DNA of 64,000 nucleotides from a virus: positions 1 through 64,000 of the IMG/VR virus record IMGVR_UViG_3300042397_001782; one strand, written 5' to 3'. How positions within the stretch are numbered: the first letter of the stretch is position 1; every line of letters starts with the position of its first letter. The position numbers and the translations under genes were made by a program. Shown here piece after piece: positions 12,701-20,500 of the stretch. The notes beneath the pieces are model-generated. The model was given only the letters and a program-made list of their open reading frames with translations, searched no databases and was not told the DNA's origin.

Positions 12701-13243
12701 CCTAAACTAGCTGAATTAGGATATACCATACAAGACTTAAAAACATTACTTGCTTTAATTGATATAAATGAACTTACTAAAAATGAGGCTAATGCTGAAA
12801 GTATTTATACTAATTTTATAGGACAGTTAGATGCACTTGTTAGAGATGGCAAATTAAAAGACCCTAAATTAAAAGATTTACAATTTTTACTTTCTAGTGA
12901 ATTAGGTGGACAAGAATTGACTTTAAGAGCATCTTCAACTCAATTGAACATAGATAAATTAGATGCAATTGACATTTATAAAGATAAAGAAGATAAGGAA
13001 GGTGTTTTAATAAGCTTTCTTTTAGATAGAATTATCACTATGAATGATGAGACTTTAGGGAGTCATAAAATAGATGTAAATCCTGAGATACTTTTTGCTG
13101 ATAATGCTTTAGTATTAGACAATATAAAAGCTAAACCCACTCCTAAAAATAAAAGAGTTAAATTACAGGCATTATCTGATGAAGACTTCTTAAATTTAGC
13201 AACCTCAAAAGGAATGGTGCAAATAAATCCTGAATGTCTATAA
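6725..13243 (+). CDS. Giant putative ejected virion protein with hydrophobic segments and a degenerate PD-(D/E)XK-like domain
   Basis: 2172 aa; GAEEATEE motif among Gly/Ala-rich hydrophobic helices; VVDNEGNVHLIDFKS; the only Cys is penultimate. Confidence 0.65.
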   Translation: MGNLKLLYDKLNKANVQVPDYNTFEQKYGNDKGLEILHSKLNNANILVPNIAEFKSKYSNTLTNQQTPIQQTTVTPKKEEPGFFEGVKTFLFGDEEKKPKVELISEKFEEPNLNPETPYPFTKTTPITVLDKEYAQKIKAVEDKYNKLQEDPSNYAAYIPSRFAIFGAEPLVKTYKVDYTRQKEQEILNLNAEKLRREGRNLTPIEQEQDIINYKNKIQANKTTIETRAKEKKSYLAELSKEDKTDSPNFISSWKKVINTVKNTWDYNTKVDDDISKAETLKNVNQKFLDYVEKGVNPFKNAPYNDAEAMKKAGSYIDPSIESGSKKAREKIGEITTKWFPTAEIKEDDKKWGTLDYLTVIWNPLIALAAKKIKTEKFTNLTAEQLEREAIEKAYNLAANNLDNSLTPLYDKIQSEIGIPKSEVIGKIDTYLTAKKQVEEGAYPNIGKLSENDIKLFNNPDFQNIADTYSKSAITPIREGKWRLLSLANVDLYNQEKANAFGTLNKVENIGRKEAIRTAILDKNVEEQGVLSKAGFDKALYNTAWTALKAGDFTANQTAAAAQIATQLATAPFRGGEAYTPEWTENIINNTDLFDNLTQQDSHFKLSIFKDDKYIDRTLPTGDIVKVQYTPEGDILNAFGGGMEYTINNPEVMKWLANDFETNKDEILANGKSLWETDGGKAVFLENVWNSMAPEIVEEMPSLLVGAGAGKIAGALIKGASKERRLRLAKGAEFMINVGTNMTEQYPSIYKKYQEAAQDKDNPFPALATSGALALGTLLTSTLQSKAIGLTGNDINKVIMPEAIEATAEAVKIINKEFAKIPNITLREKLTNAAINKVMFQNIMSSSGRFLKRTGRVGAEEATEEVVLEPLINVAANFINEKITGDKAYNQETLKDLNFLNPDVAITSFLTGGTLSTGMDLVKSMSTKGPFSKEDYLKTAFENEATFTSMVDIMTQSGNNKFSEADQAKMMTDYNALKASYNARKSELGVNDEALATLNFANPVIKGFVKSIGETEQSLDKINSGRTFDNAIIRQSLNERELAEKKIALDEEAAKGNISVSPEGTYKIVGSNPLSQELGKQISEYEQLQLSNNNLTSFIDTFNKETKPVQKQYIQELNQVTSEAPDLIRARNSKEGSYAYKAVSSAIMDKQMAMSQLEQVNAEIETAKIDGTDTQELQVKKQNLEKAIKTSDETINTLKKQYKAGRFDTQNETIDRFNEFRTASFVLQEKIQSMAGVDATDEEIEQSEINDAYADYLDAYNALEKSNSTLKKEYGVEVFDSKEAPISLEQFQAFKSNIKEKNALSKKLAENKGTLGDVGRLIGLEYTTGTKQPKDRVQVTAPKNKEDIKAILDDKEQVYEYAKRLGFNKKKSYAQTKKAVRTYLNKQLSTQDETRLEGVSAVFVEKTPRQVNGNPMFEVEGALYKPAGYSVSPTMMTQEERNTVLTNAVISEIAKQVFNNSLLLTPYNVSQIINKVIIESGFDTEVGIDNRSLQFIAETILALKADLDAKGFAYKFNDDVVISKLSEDEVRGYDGIATTPILTVVDNEGNVHLIDFKSFSAGNYAASASGWSNSLTEIQAIFQDNGITVASINVLPIRVDNTSTTQNGLTNLSIGKNSFNTIPNNDNAISRTLLQLATSTPILTTLKEEGLLTQEEVESFDEIPLDEADAPITPADKLKEDSLVVLEPETPTTTEVPVTVTEKNMKAEDKNKATKDTPKEVIEEETPEGVFAGLGKGVYIQVKETSGGFYMITIFGDTDLANKYGKKRKSLEDVRAIYKANNWFAPKTFEGTGVYQLRYADTLTPVLSKNYVEFVQPNGFSEVINDVAVAADIIGTEVEIVENNENGNNDKDEVQKDFKNKASLSIVNANGEKIAMVPPNSPLRENLKISNKKGLNRLEPTIATIKDIKFNNFNRKPYELFSEWEKKALASGVLVPGEYEMVYIGVENGTPVFKNQNGVVVPGRVPKNPKLGSAYLLITNFPTKNIMIPMGTPKLAELGYTIQDLKTLLALIDINELTKNEANAESIYTNFIGQLDALVRDGKLKDPKLKDLQFLLSSELGGQELTLRASSTQLNIDKLDAIDIYKDKEDKEGVLISFLLDRIITMNDETLGSHKIDVNPEILFADNALVLDNIKAKPTPKNKRVKLQALSDEDFLNLATSKGMVQINPECL

Positions 13244-13279
13244 AAAATTTATTATTTTTACAATTTAAAACACACAAGA

Positions 13280-14533
13280 ATGGCTTGTTATATATATAAA
13301 GGAAACACATATACAAAAGAAGAATTATTAGCAATTAAAAATCAAATTATTGCTGAGAATGAAGCTGTATTTAATCAAATGGGTTCAGAGGCTTTAAATG
13401 ATATAAATGTCCTTGTAGACCAATTAGTTAAAGGAGGATTGGCAGAAGAAGTTATAGTGGGAAATACACAAACTCTTTTAGATGTATTAGATGAGGAAGG
13501 AGCTTCTGAAGGATTAAAGCAACAAGTCCAACAAGGTCCTGAAAGACAAATAATTCTTAATGGTCAAGGAGTAACAGTGAGAACTTTCCCTGAAGATGTA
13601 TCTGTAATAAACGGATTTTATTCTCCAATAGAAAAAAGACTAGCAGAAACTAAGATTGATAAACAATCAGCAAATAAATGGGTGTCAGTTATAGGCAAAG
13701 GAGATGAAGCAACTTGGACAGGAGTAAAAGCGTGGCTTGAAGAAAAGAACCCACAAGAGCAAGTAACCAAATCTGAAATTCAGCAATGGATGAAAGATAA
13801 TAGGATTAGTGTTGTGGAAGTGGTGAAAGGGAAAACAGAATGGAGCGAGGTAAAAAAAGGCAGATGGGAAAGACCTATTGATAAAGAAAACTTACAAGGA
13901 AGAAAAACGGCAGGTAAAGTTGTTATTCAATTAATTGATGGCAAGTATTACGGTGAGCCAAGCACAACAAAATATACAAGAGTATTTAATAGCTTAGAAG
14001 AAGCACAATCTTATTATGACGGAGTTGATGGGTTTAGCACAGACACCAAATTCTCTAAGTGGCAACTAGAAGGAGAAAAAGAAAACTACAAAGAGGTGTT
14101 GGTTACGATGCCGAATGTAACAAAGCAAAGAATGCCCGAAGGTTTTTCAGTAGTTTCAAAAAGCGAGTATAAAGGAGCAAGTGAATGGACACCTAACTTT
14201 GTTGTCATAGATAAAGACGGAGTGAGTATTGTTGGTGGGAAAACCAAAGAAGCAGCATTAGATACGTTTTTTAAAACTTACGCACCTGTTTCCGAAAGTA
14301 GAGTAAACTTTAAATCAGGGCATTGGGATGAACCCAACATACTTGTTCATTTAAGAATGAATACTCGAACAGATGCAGAAGGAAATAAAGTATTGTTTTT
14401 GGAAGAGGTGCAATCAGATTTTTCTGCTGCATATCGTAAATCACAAGAAGAGGTTATGAATTTTATTAGTAAAAATGAAGGGGATGTTATTGAATTATAC
14501 AAAAAAAGCGGTAAATTAGAGGTAGAATGTTAG
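13280..14533 (+). CDS. Large polyvalent protein, N-terminal part of a split gene
   Basis: GFYSPIE...HWDEPNILVHLRMNTR...LFLEEVQSD looks like the first half of a domain that continues at 15218; starts MAC and ends EC. Confidence 0.7.
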   Translation: MACYIYKGNTYTKEELLAIKNQIIAENEAVFNQMGSEALNDINVLVDQLVKGGLAEEVIVGNTQTLLDVLDEEGASEGLKQQVQQGPERQIILNGQGVTVRTFPEDVSVINGFYSPIEKRLAETKIDKQSANKWVSVIGKGDEATWTGVKAWLEEKNPQEQVTKSEIQQWMKDNRISVVEVVKGKTEWSEVKKGRWERPIDKENLQGRKTAGKVVIQLIDGKYYGEPSTTKYTRVFNSLEEAQSYYDGVDGFSTDTKFSKWQLEGEKENYKEVLVTMPNVTKQRMPEGFSVVSKSEYKGASEWTPNFVVIDKDGVSIVGGKTKEAALDTFFKTYAPVSESRVNFKSGHWDEPNILVHLRMNTRTDAEGNKVLFLEEVQSDFSAAYRKSQEEVMNFISKNEGDVIELYKKSGKLEVEC

Positions 14534-15331
14534 AAAGTAAATTTTACATATATCGTCACATACGCCCTGATACCAATGAAGTATTTTACATCGGTAAAGG
14601 GAATAATATTAATCCAAAAAAAACTTTATACGAAAGAATGAATATTGTCAAAAAAAGAAATAAAATATGGCAGTCAATTGTATTAAAGAACAATGGCGTT
14701 TTTAAATCAGAAATACTTTTTGAATGTGAAACGGAAGAAAAATGTAATGCAAAAGAAATTGAGTTTATAGAATTGTATGGAAGAAAAGATTTGAATAACG
14801 GAACTTTGGCTAATTTAACAAGCGGTGGAGATGGAAGTTTGGGCATAATAACAAAGCAAGAAAAGAGGGATAAGTTAAGTTTAAAATTTAAAGGAGAAGC
14901 ACATCCTAATTTCGGCAAAAAACTTTCAAAAGAAACTTGTATGAAAAAGTCTGAATCAATGAAAAATTCAGATAAAAATTTAAAAGGGAAAAAATTACCT
15001 GAATGGTGGAAAGACAAAATAAGACAAACAAAATTTGGGGCTAACAATCCAATGTTTGGTAAAAAATCACATTTAGCGAAAGCGGTTATAGATATAGTGA
15101 CAGGAATTGAATACCACTCTATAATGGAAGCAGCAAAATCAACGCCTTATAAATTTCAATACGTTTCGGCAATGTTAAAAGGAACAAAAACTAATAAAAC
15201 TAATTTAAGATATAAAGATGGCTTGTAAATATAAAATAAACGGACTAGAATTAACAAAAGACGAGTTTTTAAACTATGTTAAAAAACAGCCATTAGAAGA
15301 ATCGGCTAAAATATTAGGTATTTCAACAACA
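14423..15331 (+). mobile_element. Homing-endonuclease cassette splitting the polyvalent gene (approximate bounds)
   Basis: Lies between EEVQSDF and PAAPF; flanking ORFs share a frame; endonuclease ORF overlaps both neighbours. Confidence 0.6.
14527..15228 (+). CDS. GIY-YIG homing endonuclease with NUMOD3 repeats and a C-terminal NUMOD1-like HTH
   Basis: YIYRH...FYIGKG...R...E...NLTSGGDG; HPNFGKKLSKET and NPMFGKK repeats; EYHSIMEAAK. Confidence 0.88.
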   Translation: MLESKFYIYRHIRPDTNEVFYIGKGNNINPKKTLYERMNIVKKRNKIWQSIVLKNNGVFKSEILFECETEEKCNAKEIEFIELYGRKDLNNGTLANLTSGGDGSLGIITKQEKRDKLSLKFKGEAHPNFGKKLSKETCMKKSESMKNSDKNLKGKKLPEWWKDKIRQTKFGANNPMFGKKSHLAKAVIDIVTGIEYHSIMEAAKSTPYKFQYVSAMLKGTKTNKTNLRYKDGL

Positions 15332-17467
15332 CCTGCGGCACCTTTTATTACCGATACTAATAATTATGTGAAGCTCGGATTGCGTGTAGCCCTTAAAGAA
15401 TCAGTAAAACAAGGTGCTGATAAAATTGCATGGGCTACTGGGGAGCAACAGAATGATAGGTATTCTCTTGAAAAACAAGTTGATGAGCTTAAAGTAAAAA
15501 AACAAACCGATGGGGCTTATTCAATTTATGGATATAAAGACGGTAATAGTGTTATCGAGCATAACGATGTTCCCGAAAATAAAATAGAAGCATATATTGG
15601 TAAAGAAATAGCATCTAAAGTTATTAATGAAGGACAAACAAGTTTTGAAGGAGATGACCTTAAACTTGGAGGTAAAGGCATGAAAGGCTTTTACGGCTCA
15701 CCAACAGAAGGAAGTTTAGGGATAGTAGGAAATGTAGCAAAGAGTTTGTTTAAGCAAGAGGTTGGAACGGTGGAGATAAAATTATCAGATTCAGCTCCAT
15801 CAAATGAAGTTTATTTTAATGATTGGAAAGTTGTTGGTTATATTGGGAAATTCCCACAATGGATAGCCGAATTAGATGACATAACTTATGAGATAGGCAC
15901 AAGTGATGGCATTAAATATACACTATGGCGTGGCGAAGAAAAGGTTGGGGTATTTAATAGTGTAAAACAAGCACAAGATGCGGCAAGTGGCACAGAAACG
16001 GGCATAACTTCCGCCCAACACTCCATAGACATAACACCTGAACTAAAATCACAAGTAGAAGAAGGATTACCTTTATTCCAAAAAGAACCTGTTAAACTAA
16101 TCCCAACAGGATTTGTAAAAGGAAAAAAAGTATATATAAATTCAGATGTAGCTACAATAGAAACTCCTATACACGAATTTGCTCATTTATATAATGCTTG
16201 GTTAAAAGAAAACAAAGTTGAATTATATAACAGAGGTTTGGAATTAGTGAGAGCAGAGTTAGATAAGAAAAACTCTCCAATACAATCTGTAATAGATTAT
16301 GTAAAATCAACACAACCTAATCTACAAGGAGAAGCTTTACAAGAAGAAATTCTTACACAATTAACAGGTAAAAAAGGACTAGAACTATTACAGTCTAAAA
16401 AGAAAGGCGGAATTATTAATTGGATAAAAGAAGCATTAGCAGAAATAGCTAATATGTTAGGATTGTCAAATTATTCTGTTGAACAAGCAATGAATATGAC
16501 AATAGATGAATTTGCTAAGGCTATTGCTGTTGATTTGTTACAAGGACAAAAACCAATAGGAATAACAGTAGAAGAAGCTATTAAACGTAATAACGGAAAT
16601 CCTTTAAATCTGGCACCAAATGGAAACCCTTCTATTTTATACCAATCATATAAAGATTTAGGATATTTTGATAATGAAGCAGAGAGATTTACGGCACAAA
16701 CGTTTAGTAATGAGTTTAAAACATGGTTTGGAGATTGGCAAAATGATGCTGAAAATGCTAGTAAAGTGATGGATGAAAATGGTCAGCCAAAACTAATGTA
16801 TCACGAAACAGCAGCGGATTGGTTTATATACGACAAAACAAAAATAGAGGCGGGTAAACTTGATTCAGTTACACCTACTGGTATATTTTTAAAATCTTCT
16901 AATAAAAATATTGGCTTAGGAAACAGACAAATGAATTTGTTTTCGAGTATAAAAAATCCGATTTATGCAAAAGATAGAAAAGAATTAGAAAATTTCTTTA
17001 GTTTAAATATTAAAGGGTACTCTGAAATTAAAGAAAAATCATCTCAAGTTGAAAAAGAATACGATAAAATACTAGAAAAAGAAGGTCCAAGACTTAAAGA
17101 AGCTTTTAAAAAAGAAATAGAAGATTTTAAAGGAGAACTTACAAGTGAAGATAGGATTAAATTAGTAGAAAAAGTTTATAAAAATTCTGACACAGAATTA
17201 AACGATTTGGAAGTAGAATTTGAAAATTTAGCCATAGAGGCAAAAGCATTGATTGATTCATTTATGAAAGATTCAAACTATGATGGGATATTCTTAACTT
17301 CAGATGTTGGAAGTAAAGGAAGAGAAACAGATGCTACAATAGCTATGAATCCTGAACAAATAAAATCAGCTACAGGAAACATAGGAACATTTAGCCCTAC
17401 AAATGCTGACATTAGATTTCAAACAATACCAACAGAAGAAACCACTACAATTCCTGACTGTGTCTAG
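15218..17467 (+). CDS. Large polyvalent protein, C-terminal part: zincin metallopeptidase (MPTase) plus ADP-ribosyltransferase-like (ART-PolyVal) domain
   Basis: VYINSD...TPIHEFAH (HExxH); FKTWFGDW...SKVMDENGQPKLMYH...YDGI...PEQIKSATGNIGTF...DIRFQ; starts MAC and ends DCV. Confidence 0.75.
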   Translation: MACKYKINGLELTKDEFLNYVKKQPLEESAKILGISTTPAAPFITDTNNYVKLGLRVALKESVKQGADKIAWATGEQQNDRYSLEKQVDELKVKKQTDGAYSIYGYKDGNSVIEHNDVPENKIEAYIGKEIASKVINEGQTSFEGDDLKLGGKGMKGFYGSPTEGSLGIVGNVAKSLFKQEVGTVEIKLSDSAPSNEVYFNDWKVVGYIGKFPQWIAELDDITYEIGTSDGIKYTLWRGEEKVGVFNSVKQAQDAASGTETGITSAQHSIDITPELKSQVEEGLPLFQKEPVKLIPTGFVKGKKVYINSDVATIETPIHEFAHLYNAWLKENKVELYNRGLELVRAELDKKNSPIQSVIDYVKSTQPNLQGEALQEEILTQLTGKKGLELLQSKKKGGIINWIKEALAEIANMLGLSNYSVEQAMNMTIDEFAKAIAVDLLQGQKPIGITVEEAIKRNNGNPLNLAPNGNPSILYQSYKDLGYFDNEAERFTAQTFSNEFKTWFGDWQNDAENASKVMDENGQPKLMYHETAADWFIYDKTKIEAGKLDSVTPTGIFLKSSNKNIGLGNRQMNLFSSIKNPIYAKDRKELENFFSLNIKGYSEIKEKSSQVEKEYDKILEKEGPRLKEAFKKEIEDFKGELTSEDRIKLVEKVYKNSDTELNDLEVEFENLAIEAKALIDSFMKDSNYDGIFLTSDVGSKGRETDATIAMNPEQIKSATGNIGTFSPTNADIRFQTIPTEETTTIPDCV

Positions 17468-17519
17468 GAACTAAATACCCAAAATAATTGTTAAAAAAGG
17501 GAAATTAAAAATTATTACT

Positions 17520-17527
17520 TACTTTTG
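17520..17527 (+). promoter_or_regulatory. Bacteroidota -7 promoter element
   Basis: TACTTTTG matches TAnnTTTG, upstream of 17583. Confidence 0.45.
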
Positions 17528-17530
17528 TAT

Positions 17531-17564
17531 TGTTTCCCCTCCTTTTGGTAGGGAAACATTTTTT
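17531..17564 (+). terminator. Hairpin with U-tract
   Basis: tgtttccc...gggaaaca followed by tttttt. Confidence 0.5.
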
Positions 17565-17582
17565 ATAAAATAAATATAATAT

Positions 17583-20500
17583 ATGGCTAAGTGCTCATTA
17601 CCTTATGTAGAAAAAAGATTTAGAGAAAGTAACCCTCAATTAGCGGATAAGCTTAATGATATTGGCTTAAAGGTATTTGAAGATATTTCTAATTCAACCC
17701 TATTTGACAGAAAAGAGGGTAATTTTGTATTTAACGAAGAAGGCACTGAAGAAAGAAACTCTCAGAATGACTTTGTCACTAAATTAAATACAGATTTAGG
17801 GGCAGAAGTAGTAAGAGAAGTAGAAAAAAAAGTAAGTGTAAATGTATTGCCTTTAGTTACAGAAGAAGATTTGAGGACTGGTTCTCAAATTGCAAGCCAA
17901 GTTAACCCTGCATTAAGAGATGTAGAGAGTACGGCTAAAGATATTGAATCAAAAAGAATAGCAACTGACGCTAAGATTAAGCGTAAAGATTTATTTGATG
18001 GTGTAGGTGAATTTTCAACTCAATTGGGAGGTAGCGATAAAGCTGCTGTTCCTATATCTCATAAAGAAAAAAACGGAATTGAGATTGTTGAGTATGCTCA
18101 TCCCGAAACAGGCAGTGTAGATGTTATAGTTACAGGGAAATCAGATAATGACTTTGTTGGATTTTATCGTATTTACGAAAATGGAAAGCCTACAAATAAG
18201 TGGAGTTCAAAGTTTGAAAATCAATCAAGAAATAAAGATGATTTTAAAACAATGATAAGTGGTATTCAGGAAATGCTACCAGCAGGACACGAATACACCG
18301 AGAAAACATCTATATCTACTGATGGATTAAGAATATGGAATCAACAATTAAATCGTGGGTATGAATTACAATATGATGAAAATGGAAAATTAAAGACAAA
18401 TAGAGTTTTTATAAACGGAGATGCTATTGTTAATGAGTTAGGGATACCTGTTGAAAAAGGAGATTTTGAAAAAATAAAGGTAAAAACAAGAGAAGATTTT
18501 GAAAAGGTGAAAGCAAAACTTTTGCCTTACTTAGAAAAATTTGGATTAGACGAAAGTAGTATAAAATGGATTTCAGGGAATGTTGAAATTACTCCACAAA
18601 ACGAAAAGGCGTTTGCATCAACAGCATCAGTAAAAATAGATTTACCTGTATTAAAGAAATCAGAATCCCTACTATCTAAAGAACAATTACCTGCATTGGA
18701 AGATGTAGAAGAATTTAAATCTTCAGAAGAGCTACCCGACTCTTTTTTAACATTATCGGATTTTGAAGAACCTGCATACACTCCTACAACTCCAGAGACA
18801 CACCCTGAAAGAGTAGCACCATTAGCACCCGAGCCAATGAAGTCTATCCCTCAACAGTGGGAAGAATATACTAACTTAAAAGATAGAACAGATTTAACCC
18901 CTGATGAAGAATTAGATTTAGCTGTTTATAGAGCTAAGTTTGATATGTTTGATAGCCCTTCTCAGTATGAGAAAGTTATGTCAGACCCTACACCTAAAGC
19001 TTTTGTTTCTTTTAGAGAAAAGAATTTAGAAAAATTATTACTTAGCTTTGCTGACAAATTTGGTATCACAATTGCCAATATTGAAGATTTTCAAAAACAA
19101 TACTTTGAAAAGACAGGTAAATTTATACCTGCTAATGGTGTAGCTAATTTGTTTGAAAAAGTTATCTATGTTTCTGAAGGAAATACAGATGCTCTTACCG
19201 AAGAGGTGGCCCACTTTATTATAGCTATGTTGCCTAAAGATGGGGAGCTTTACCAAAACTTAAAGCAATACATCTCAAGAACAAGAGAATATGAGTTGTT
19301 TTATGACAAGTATTTAGCTCAATATGACGGAGATGTAGATAAAACCGAAGAAGAGATAATGGGTAAAGTATTTAAAAATGCTTTACAAGATAAAGAAGAA
19401 ACGGTGCCGTTATCAGTTAGATCTGTAGTAAAAAGAATTATAAACTATATTTCTGATTTATTTTCAGATGATAAAATGGAATACTTAAATTCCTTAAATC
19501 AGTTGAAGAAAATGTTTTTCAGTGAAAATTTAGCAGAAGGATTGGATGCTGCTAATATAAATTATGACGAACTATACCAATTAAATTTCGAGATTACAGG
19601 AAAGGAAACCGATGCTGTTTTAAAGGAAAGATCTGATAAATTTAATTTAGGTGCAAATCTCCTTATAGAGAACCTAGAGGATACTCTTTCTAATATTAGA
19701 CAACAAGCTATAGAGTCTAACCAGACTGAAGCTTTAAGGTCTTCTAATTATTTGTTAAGTATATTAGGTAAAAAAACTGAGCAAGATGCAGATAAAGCAA
19801 AGATTTTATCTAGTATGGTGTTTTCTTCCGTTGCTACTATAAGACGTTTACAAGGTTCTTTCAATGAATTTGATAAGTTAAATATACCTAAAACATTAGA
19901 AACAGATTTTAATAGAGATAATTTAATTAAGTTAAGCTATGATGACTATAATAAATCATTGTCAAAATTAGCGAGTTATATAAATTATTTACAATCTTTA
20001 TACTCTCTTTCAAAATCAATAGAAAGCACTTCCAAATTAATGAAGTTAGAGTCTAATGATATGATTGCATTTAAAAAAATTATTTATGATTTAGACCCAT
20101 CAATAACAGAGAACGATGAAATCATAAAAGCTTTCGATTTATTAGATGGGGAGGGAGTTAAGGTTATGGCTGCAAAGATAGAAAGCATTTATCTTAAAAA
20201 TGTAAAACAAATTTTAGATATTTATATGTCTGCTTTGAATACAGAAGACCAAAAAAGATTTTTAAATTATCAAAATGAAGTTGATTTTGCTAATACAGAT
20301 GCAAAAACTATTGCAGATAAAAATAATAATATAATAGACTATTCTAAAGGAATATTTAGCAATATAAAAAGTTTATTTAGCAAAGGAATTACTCCTGTAA
20401 CCATGCAAAATGATACATTTATACAGAGTGTAGATAGATTTGTATCGGCTATGGAGCAAATGGGAAAAGAAAGAGCTTCTAAGGAAGTTGCGGAAGTTCA

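Follow-up and report, generated by a model that had tools for sequence, protein, structure and literature searches.

The DNA examined here, hereafter the window, comprises positions 1 to 64,000 of the IMG/VR virus record IMGVR_UViG_3300042397_001782 and is phage DNA with 31% G+C (the full record has 119,980 bases). Its plus strand carries a run of four consecutive proteins of 2172, 417, 749, and 2176 amino acids. Between the second and third of these, a free-standing GIY-YIG/NUMOD3 homing endonuclease gene and a pair of conserved peptide tips interrupt a domain that is otherwise continuous, and this combination recurs at different sites.

The split gene and its uninterrupted alleles

The 417-residue protein, here called the N-half (13280-14533, on the plus strand like all features below), ends in ..SGKLEVEC before its stop and has cysteine only at Cys3 and at Cys417, its last residue. 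The 749-residue C-half (15218-17467) starts with MACKYK.., has cysteine only at Cys3 and Cys748, and holds the remaining part of the domain, a HExxH stretch, and an ART-PolyVal domain identified with Pfam (residues 519-725), which therefore places the gene set in the phage "polyvalent protein" class. The endonuclease gene (14527-15228; 233 amino acids, 3 internal cysteines) overlaps both neighbors. Specifically, its ATG lies within the upstream GAATGTTAG, which gives a 7-nucleotide overlap with the N-half gene, the C-half ATG lies within the endonuclease's ..GGCTTGTAA, which gives an 11-nucleotide overlap, and the endonuclease TAA lies within the downstream ATGGCTTGTAA, with zero noncoding bases between the three open reading frames (ORFs). 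The two halves are in one frame (their starts at 13280 and 15218 are both 2 mod 3). An earlier note, made from the letters of this DNA, had described the overlaps, the lack of a noncoding gap, and the shared frame, and all three descriptions hold. Read-through or an in-frame insert was rejected because of 23 stops in the halves' shared frame across the endonuclease.

At the point of interruption, which we call site B, the Q-S-D codons (14411-14419) encode the final host-domain residues upstream of the cassette, and the P-A-A-P-F codons (15332-15346) mark the restart of the host domain. Exactly 37 residues lie between ..EEVQSD and the C-terminal Cys417 (the C-tip, 14420-14530, with its invariant terminal cysteine codon at 14528-14530), and exactly 38 residues (MAC..ISTT) precede PAAPF (the N-tip, 15218-15331). 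The latter consists of M-A-C, with the cysteine codon at 15224-15226, a K-Y-K-I-N-G-L-E-L stretch, and T-K-D-E-F-L-N-Y-V-K-K-Q-P-L-E-E-S...

Using the end of the N-half as query, we retrieved 19 related IMG/VR loci. In 17 of these, N-half-like and C-half-like parts share one open frame (homologs of N-half residues ~90-380 fused to C-half homologs), while the remaining two are ended by a contig edge and frameshifted, respectively. Among GenBank phages a close relative of the N-half was not found, the sole relative there being Dolichospermum phage Dfl-JY45, in which a single protein contains two uninterrupted copies of the domain. The statement in the earlier note that the motifs LF.EE.QSD and P.APF belong to one continuous domain is thus borne out. 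The uninterrupted consensus reads ..NILVHLRMNTR..LFLEEVQSD-WGQxGKKxGF-[variable]-PxAPFVTDTNAWTKLGLKVALKEAVKQGADKIAWTTGEQQ.., and alignment with it sets the ends of the insertion at QSD and PAAPF. Immediately after QSD, uninterrupted alleles have W-G-Q-x-G-K-K whereas split alleles have F-x-x-x-Y-R-K. The linker from QSD to PxAPF is hypervariable, with 49-105 residues in the 13 uninterrupted loci measured (longer in two further loci) vs 75 in the window. As such, the cassette tips substitute for a hypervariable linker of similar size, with no net added length. The tip lengths, the Cys end, and the MAC start given in the earlier note therefore stand, but its description of these residues as "extra" does not, as a linker of 49-105 residues is replaced.

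Contigs from four lake-water runs were compared with positions 13600-16200. One contig matches both flanks and joins 14413 to 15386 without the cassette (skipping 14414-15385), and a second departs from the window at 14407 and runs into the W-G-Q-x-G-K motif. Both may be related uninterrupted alleles from the same habitat, although at 85% likeness they possibly belong to other phages. Co-occurring uninterrupted alleles are a setting where homing can act.

Pfam holds no family for the split domain, nor for the two giant neighboring proteins, and an AlphaFold2 (AF2) model of an uninterrupted homolog (mean predicted local distance difference test score 60) had no Foldseek match in the PDB at E ≤ 0.001. 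In that model (L008, 5584-7695), the conserved core has a beta-hairpin that finishes at ..EEVQSD and, beyond the variable loop, a helix and a strand. Weak Foldseek rows for it include actin/Hsp70-like ATPases and acetyltransferases, none of them significant.

A tip pair that recurs with its endonuclease

The tips are not present in uninterrupted alleles. At site B, the C-tip follows the pattern QSD-F-x-x-x-Y-R/K-K..[D/N][F/Y][I/V].KN....[I/V]E.[F/Y]KK.G.L.[V/I].C, plus 0-2 residues, and this ending is found in all proteins that terminate there (25 clusters among 240 homologs). On the other side, 15 of 85 C-half homologs begin with M-A/D-C-K/E-Y-x-I-N/D-G-L-x-L/F-S/T-K-D/E-E-F-L-N-Y-V/I-K-K-Q-P-L.. 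before PxAPF. C417 is invariant in all 15 aligned C-tips and C3 in all 13 aligned N-tips. When the split-type motif was searched as a DNA pattern, seven metagenome stretches matched, six of which are real (L022-L026 and L028). A GIY-YIG gene lies directly after the C-tip stop in 6/6 of these real loci, and an M-x-C tip with a C-half follows downstream in all three contigs of sufficient length. In global alignment, their endonucleases share 72% (L022), 57% (L023), 47% (L024), and 37% (L026) identity with that of the window; the endonuclease of L025 is cut by the contig end and shows 50% over 46 matched residues. The cassette of L022 is closer to the window than its surroundings are, with 73% identity in the C-tip, 72% in the endonuclease, and 82% in the N-tip vs 48% and 44% in the flanks.

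The same combination occurs at a second place in the domain. In the IMG/VR locus L029, a homologous tip pair (..YKKSGKLVVEC before the stop, and MAAPCKYYINGKTLSKEQF..) accompanies a homologous endonuclease (45-50% identity) at site A, ~60 host residues upstream of site B. There, the cassette lies between ..EGEKENY.EKLVILPN and GEFRSSHFDEKNILVH.., with the host sequence downstream of it reading GEFRSSHFDE..., and site B of the same locus is uninterrupted and reads WGQTGKREGF, i.e. the W-G-Q-x-G-K motif. Site A tips are found in five further protein clusters. At a third place, site C, after ..ALKEAVKQG, tips are seen in twelve clusters (six C-tips among the 240 proteins and six N-tips among the 85); these are clearly homologous to the others, with ..MKKLGKLEVKCP on one side and M-G-F-P-C-D-Y-Y-F-K-G-R-K-L-T-Y-D-Q-F.. 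on the other. The search for cassettes of this type elsewhere, proposed in the earlier note, thus found one with its endonuclease at site A and tips in proteins at site C.

Hidden Markov models of the tips from the three sites gave 30 N-tip and 36 C-tip matches in 317 sequences, all terminal and none internal, and patterns of the tip core gave 23 N and 28 C terminal matches and no internal one in 310 proteins. With 0 internal matches, the idea that longer proteins contain the tip pair in a fused, ancestral form was rejected. Given that uninterrupted alleles lack the tips, that L029 has them next to a homologous endonuclease at the second site, and that the matches are confined to termini, sequence comparison supports the view that they are part of the cassette and not of the host gene, as the earlier note had proposed.

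The endonuclease of the window matches Pfam NUMOD3 (E = 3.2e-9, 37 bits, cutoff 20.4) and PHROG 314 "homing endonuclease" (1.7e-23), with scores against the Pfam GIY-YIG models lying below their cutoffs (21.3 vs 27 and 16.2 vs 22.6). A sequence search of the PDB with this endonuclease gave 0 matches at 0.01, and a profile search gave weak matches only, with GIY-YIG at E = 0.093. Y9, Y21, G23, R37, E77, and N96 are invariant in 6/6 cassette endonucleases (the window and five relatives aligned), and we take these Tyr, Tyr-x-Gly, Arg, Glu, and Asn residues to be the GIY-YIG catalytic residues, at I-TevI positions. Seventy-four distinct relatives were placed in a quick maximum-likelihood tree, where six of the seven cassette endonucleases, including that of L029 at site A, fall in one group apart from 67 other relatives (Shimodaira-Hasegawa-like approximate likelihood ratio test 89), and 0 of 500 label shuffles were equally clustered. 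Occupancy by the endonuclease is variable: it is found in 0/19 of the related IMG/VR loci vs all six split metagenomic loci and L029. Three of four records carrying uninterrupted alleles have no endonuclease match anywhere in the record, and of 80 IMG/VR loci that encode related endonucleases, L029 alone has these flanks. The remaining cassette endonuclease on the tree, that of L028, scores above the cutoff of Pfam LEM-3_GIY-YIG (37.3 vs 27). This 1583-base contig is a high-G+C relative with the same C-tip and a divergent GIY-YIG gene.

Proposed rejoining of the halves and origin of the tips

The explanation we favor, and hold to be fairly probable, is that a composite mobile cassette occupies a loop of a polyvalent protein and that its tips rejoin the split halves, with neither RNA nor protein splicing. 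A free-standing GIY-YIG/NUMOD3 gene in a loop of a conserved domain of ~600 residues would have made two genes out of one, the host being a phage polyvalent protein that is probably packed into the virion. The cassette would consist of a C-tip of ~30-37 residues ending in cysteine and a stop, the endonuclease, and a start followed by a Cys-headed N-tip of ~25-38 residues, and it would substitute for local host sequence and travel as one unit. Uninterrupted alleles would acquire the cassette through homing, the tips being co-converted, and transposition-like events would on rare occasions bring it to new sites; cleavage of the empty allele and copying into it are the homing activity predicted from the sequence. 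Because starts and stops overlap, we propose that expression would rely on translational coupling. The tips would then bind one another, the C-tip with its helices and a terminal strand and the N-tip with a hairpin and a helix, such that the terminal cysteines meet and probably form a disulfide once in the virion. The rejoined halves would act as one chain, which would make the insertion low-cost to the phage. The tip pair itself probably descended from native Cys-tipped connectors between consecutive cargo proteins, and an endonuclease resident in such a junction may later have taken the connectors into domain interiors.

In a low-confidence AF2 model of the N-half alone, the C-tip forms helices at 383-398 and 400-410 and has a disordered end, and the N-terminal tip of the same protein, at the junction with the 2172-residue protein, forms a hairpin plus a helix, also with low confidence. 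A complex prediction of C-tip residues 378-417 with N-tip residues 1-40 reached a median score of 0.31 vs a mark of 0.32, which counts neither for nor against docking. The net charges of the tips are near-neutral (-1 and +1), so that charge-complementary tails of the type seen in phage Aeh1 were rejected. Conservation is what argues that the tips would be needed for assembly or activity.

The cysteines of the whole gene run are relevant here. Seven consecutive cargo-like ORFs (565-24113; 7567 amino acids, endonuclease excluded) have six cysteines in total, all of them in the last four proteins and all no more than four residues from termini that face each other across three junctions (positions 2171 of 2172; 3 and 417 of 417; 3 and 748 of 749; and 4). 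The 22 other ORFs of the window have 1.19% cysteine. This pattern suggests a head-to-tail linked chain of virion proteins. Homologs follow the same terminal rule (for example, a 1635-residue protein has cysteine at 3 and 1635 only). A terminal cysteine codon that is a mere by-product of the overlapping ATG was rejected, the cysteine being kept in L023, L024, L026, and L028 despite differing overlap geometry and codon.

Several observations, given in this paragraph and the next two, weigh against the composite cassette. Facing Cys-tipped ends are present at the two endonuclease-free junctions of the window: at junction 1 (13235-13288), ..NPECL and a stop are followed by a 36-nucleotide spacer and MACYIYKG..., and at junction 3 (17459-17594), ..IPDCV and a stop are followed by a 115-nucleotide spacer and MAKCSL... 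In L022, L023, and L025, such ends lie on both sides of a ferritin gene as well. It follows that terminal cysteines are no hallmark of the endonuclease; they are a general trait of these protein chains. The ferritin-like gene (PF00210, 1.6e-18) lies at 4023-4508 in L022 and corresponds to a 179-residue ORF in L023 and L025; in each, it sits between an end in ..ECA or ..DCL and a start with MAC.. or MAKLPC.. Such junctions can therefore hold cargo besides endonucleases.

These findings bring forward the best-surviving alternative, namely that the tips are native connectors of a multigene cargo chain and that the splits predate the endonuclease, a tenant homing into conserved tip-coding DNA. It would account for the facing cysteines and the ferritin gene, for the cysteine within the last four residues of 99/240 homologs and within the first eight of 64/240, and for the matches of the tip profiles to inter-domain termini in other phages (P0071, 2.5e-5; P0189, 9e-4; P0021, P0006, P0012, and P0157, 5-8e-4). 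Within the window, BLASTP found no similarity between the tips of junction 1 and those of the cassette, tip profiles matched junction 1 weakly, with E = 0.004, on the N side and had no match on the C side, and they gave no match at junction 3. However, among junctions seen as DNA, a GIY-YIG gene is present at 8/8 intradomain junctions (window, L022-L026, L028, and L029) vs 0/5 inter-domain junctions, a small sample that fits connectors carried into domain interiors by the endonuclease. One tip family at three places within one conserved domain also requires a mobile vehicle, and the cassette endonucleases cluster on the tree. Native connectors account for the origin of the tips but not for their spread, and we regard them as an unlikely full explanation.

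Other points against the composite cassette concern the sample and its reach. Only eight split loci were seen as DNA, the window included, of which L023 and L025 are near-identical, set against ~25 protein clusters at site B. In the comparison of the window with L023, the cassette shows no excess of identity (46/57/42% vs 49/63% in the flanks). Contigs of the site C form were sought in viral and genome contigs, and with tip patterns, and none was found. For the cassette in general, two strict tip patterns had no match in viral contigs and a looser one recovered the L029 contig only. The endonuclease tree is quick, with support below 95 on its key branch, and L028 is a long-branch outlier on it. 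The 1.6-kb L028 contig has terminase-like ORFs after the endonuclease rather than a C-half, which might reflect either another gene order or a rearranged locus. Finally, docking of the tips and the Cys-Cys link are predictions from sequence, and the fragments of Aeh1 pair without their tails, so that "tips hold halves" is not to be assumed (Crona et al. 2010, PMC3045599).

That last point also speaks for a reading in which the tips have no rejoining role, the domain's own interface reassembles the halves, and the tips are tolerated leftovers or aids to endonuclease expression. The NrdA-a/NrdA-b heterodimer of Aeh1 forms without tails, and the tips here lie in a hypervariable loop that tolerates 49-105 unrelated residues. 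Yet in loci with 33-49% identical flanks, both terminal cysteines and further tip residues are invariant, the tips are conserved at three different sites, and cysteine is otherwise purged from these proteins, all of which makes this reading improbable.

Splicing fares worst. Rfam gave 0 matches to any family, introns included, over 13000-17700 at E ≤ 1, and with no noncoding DNA flanking the ORF a group I intron-encoded endonuclease was rejected. A degenerate intein is one possible origin that Crona et al. (PMC3045599) give for the Aeh1 tails, but the idea that the tips are a tiny or degenerate split intein, as in "fractured genes", with the halves ligated by protein trans-splicing, was rejected as very improbable, since neither half has a Hint/intein Pfam match at E ≤ 0.1, the tips (37 and 38 residues) total 75 residues, no conserved Cys/Ser/Thr nucleophile is found at the host/C-tip boundary (..QSD to F..) and no conserved Asn with Cys/Ser/Thr at the N-tip/host boundary (..I-S-T-T to P-A-A-P-F), and the conserved cysteines are found not at the splice junctions but at the opposite ends of the tips, the position of the break in a split intein. 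The earlier note, which had seen no intein end and no intron core, was right in this respect, and its interpretation as a whole is partly supported.

A broader version of the composite cassette is that the tip pair is a generic, self-contained rejoining adaptor, combining docking with an end-to-end disulfide, carried by a lineage of homing endonucleases. We hold this tentatively, at somewhat less than an even chance. If true, virion cargo proteins could take up the element in nearly any of their surface loops and stay functional, i.e. the element would be a mobile "cut-and-staple" cassette and a natural, intein-free split-protein connector.

Relation to other fragmented genes and neighboring features

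In phage Aeh1, Friedrich and colleagues reportedly described in 2007 the order nrdA-a / mobE / nrdA-b. The likeness to the window is close: a free-standing homing endonuclease splits a gene that is kept whole in relatives, the new C- and N-termini bear peptides absent from uninterrupted homologs, and neither RNA nor protein splicing is involved. The split NrdA requires tails whose origin lies in the mobE insertion, and element-derived tails were proposed as a general antidote to gene fragmentation, with the expectation that they would vary among cases and go undetected in similarity searches (Crona et al. 2010, PMC3045599). The supposition in the earlier note that added tips had not been described for Aeh1, and that a third route besides introns and inteins would be novel, is thereby overturned. 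By contrast, Aeh1 is a single case in which the endonuclease is of the HNH type and the tails carry opposite charges (pI 10.4 and 3.8), whereas the tails of the window cassette are near-neutral, have an invariant terminal cysteine, form a conserved family detectable with profiles, belong with one GIY-YIG lineage, and recur in many phages at three places in the domain. Tail function was demonstrated by experiment in Aeh1; here, the tails are known from their sequences.

In the fractured genes, a free-standing endonuclease gene, GIY-YIG or Vsr-like, separates the two parts of a split intein (Dassa et al. 2009, PMC2677866). They share with the window the layout of three genes on one strand in phage-like metagenomic DNA and flanking peptides derived from the insert, but the peptides of the window are not intein halves, and rejoining would be by docking or a disulfide, not by a new peptide bond. 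T4-like phages carry seg and mob genes between or inside conserved genes, such as mobA in the gene 39/60 topoisomerase and a seg-like gene in gene 43 of phage 25 (Edgell et al. 2010, PMC2988022). These GIY-YIG and HNH genes also include transposition-like insertions that split genes, and starts that overlap the upstream stop and suggest translational coupling (PMC2988022). Unlike the present case, the available portion of that review describes no conserved portable tail pair, and it leaves the assembly of split polypeptides open (PMC2988022).

A parallel for the proposed link comes from cyanopodophage A4, in which cryo-electron microscopy resolved a Cys1715-Cys5 disulfide between two ejection proteins, gp27, through its C-terminal helix, and gp26 (PMC12002296). 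There, the bond runs from a near-C-terminal cysteine of one virion-internal protein to Cys5 of its neighbor, into which the C-terminal helix docks, similar to the link proposed here. Cysteines at facing ends of consecutive cargo proteins, the arrangement of A4, are found in the window and in homologs. The A4 case has no endonuclease or split domain, the likeness does not come from sequence comparison, and the bond in the window is a prediction. The founding account of this protein class, on polyvalent proteins, by Iyer et al. (2017, PMC5512222) has no mention of cysteine, disulfide, homing, intein, split, or GIY-YIG, and a literature search for docking tips with free-standing endonucleases found nothing closer than the papers on Aeh1, fractured genes, A4, and seg/mob genes.

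From these comparisons, the novelty appears to be that a pair of Cys-tipped tails is conserved, portable, and linked to a single endonuclease lineage, and that the tail family is placed, as judged by homology, at three sites of one domain in many uncultured lake phages. Tails with a recognizable family that move with their endonuclease among at least three sites would make the antidote idea testable at scale. They also raise the questions of which loops are tolerant, whether the tips suffice for unrelated split proteins, and whether the Cys link is reversible and opens in the host cytoplasm. The tips further bear on the modularization of giant phage cargo proteins, and could serve as a small natural connector in protein engineering.

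Two further observations concern the surroundings of the cassette. In the close relatives P0052, P0054, P0066, and P0095, a single ORF of 931-1330 residues starts like the first 83 residues of the window N-half (90-94% identity in three, 64% in P0095) and ends like the C-half (..TIPDCV), with other domains in the place of the split domain. These sequences suggest that the domain as a whole, cassette included, is an exchangeable module, with Cys-tipped ends on either side that stay fixed. At 17500-17565, inside the 115-nucleotide spacer before the 2176-residue gene, a G+C-rich inverted repeat is followed by a T run and resembles a terminator hairpin; therefore, the last giant gene may belong to another transcription unit than the split genes.

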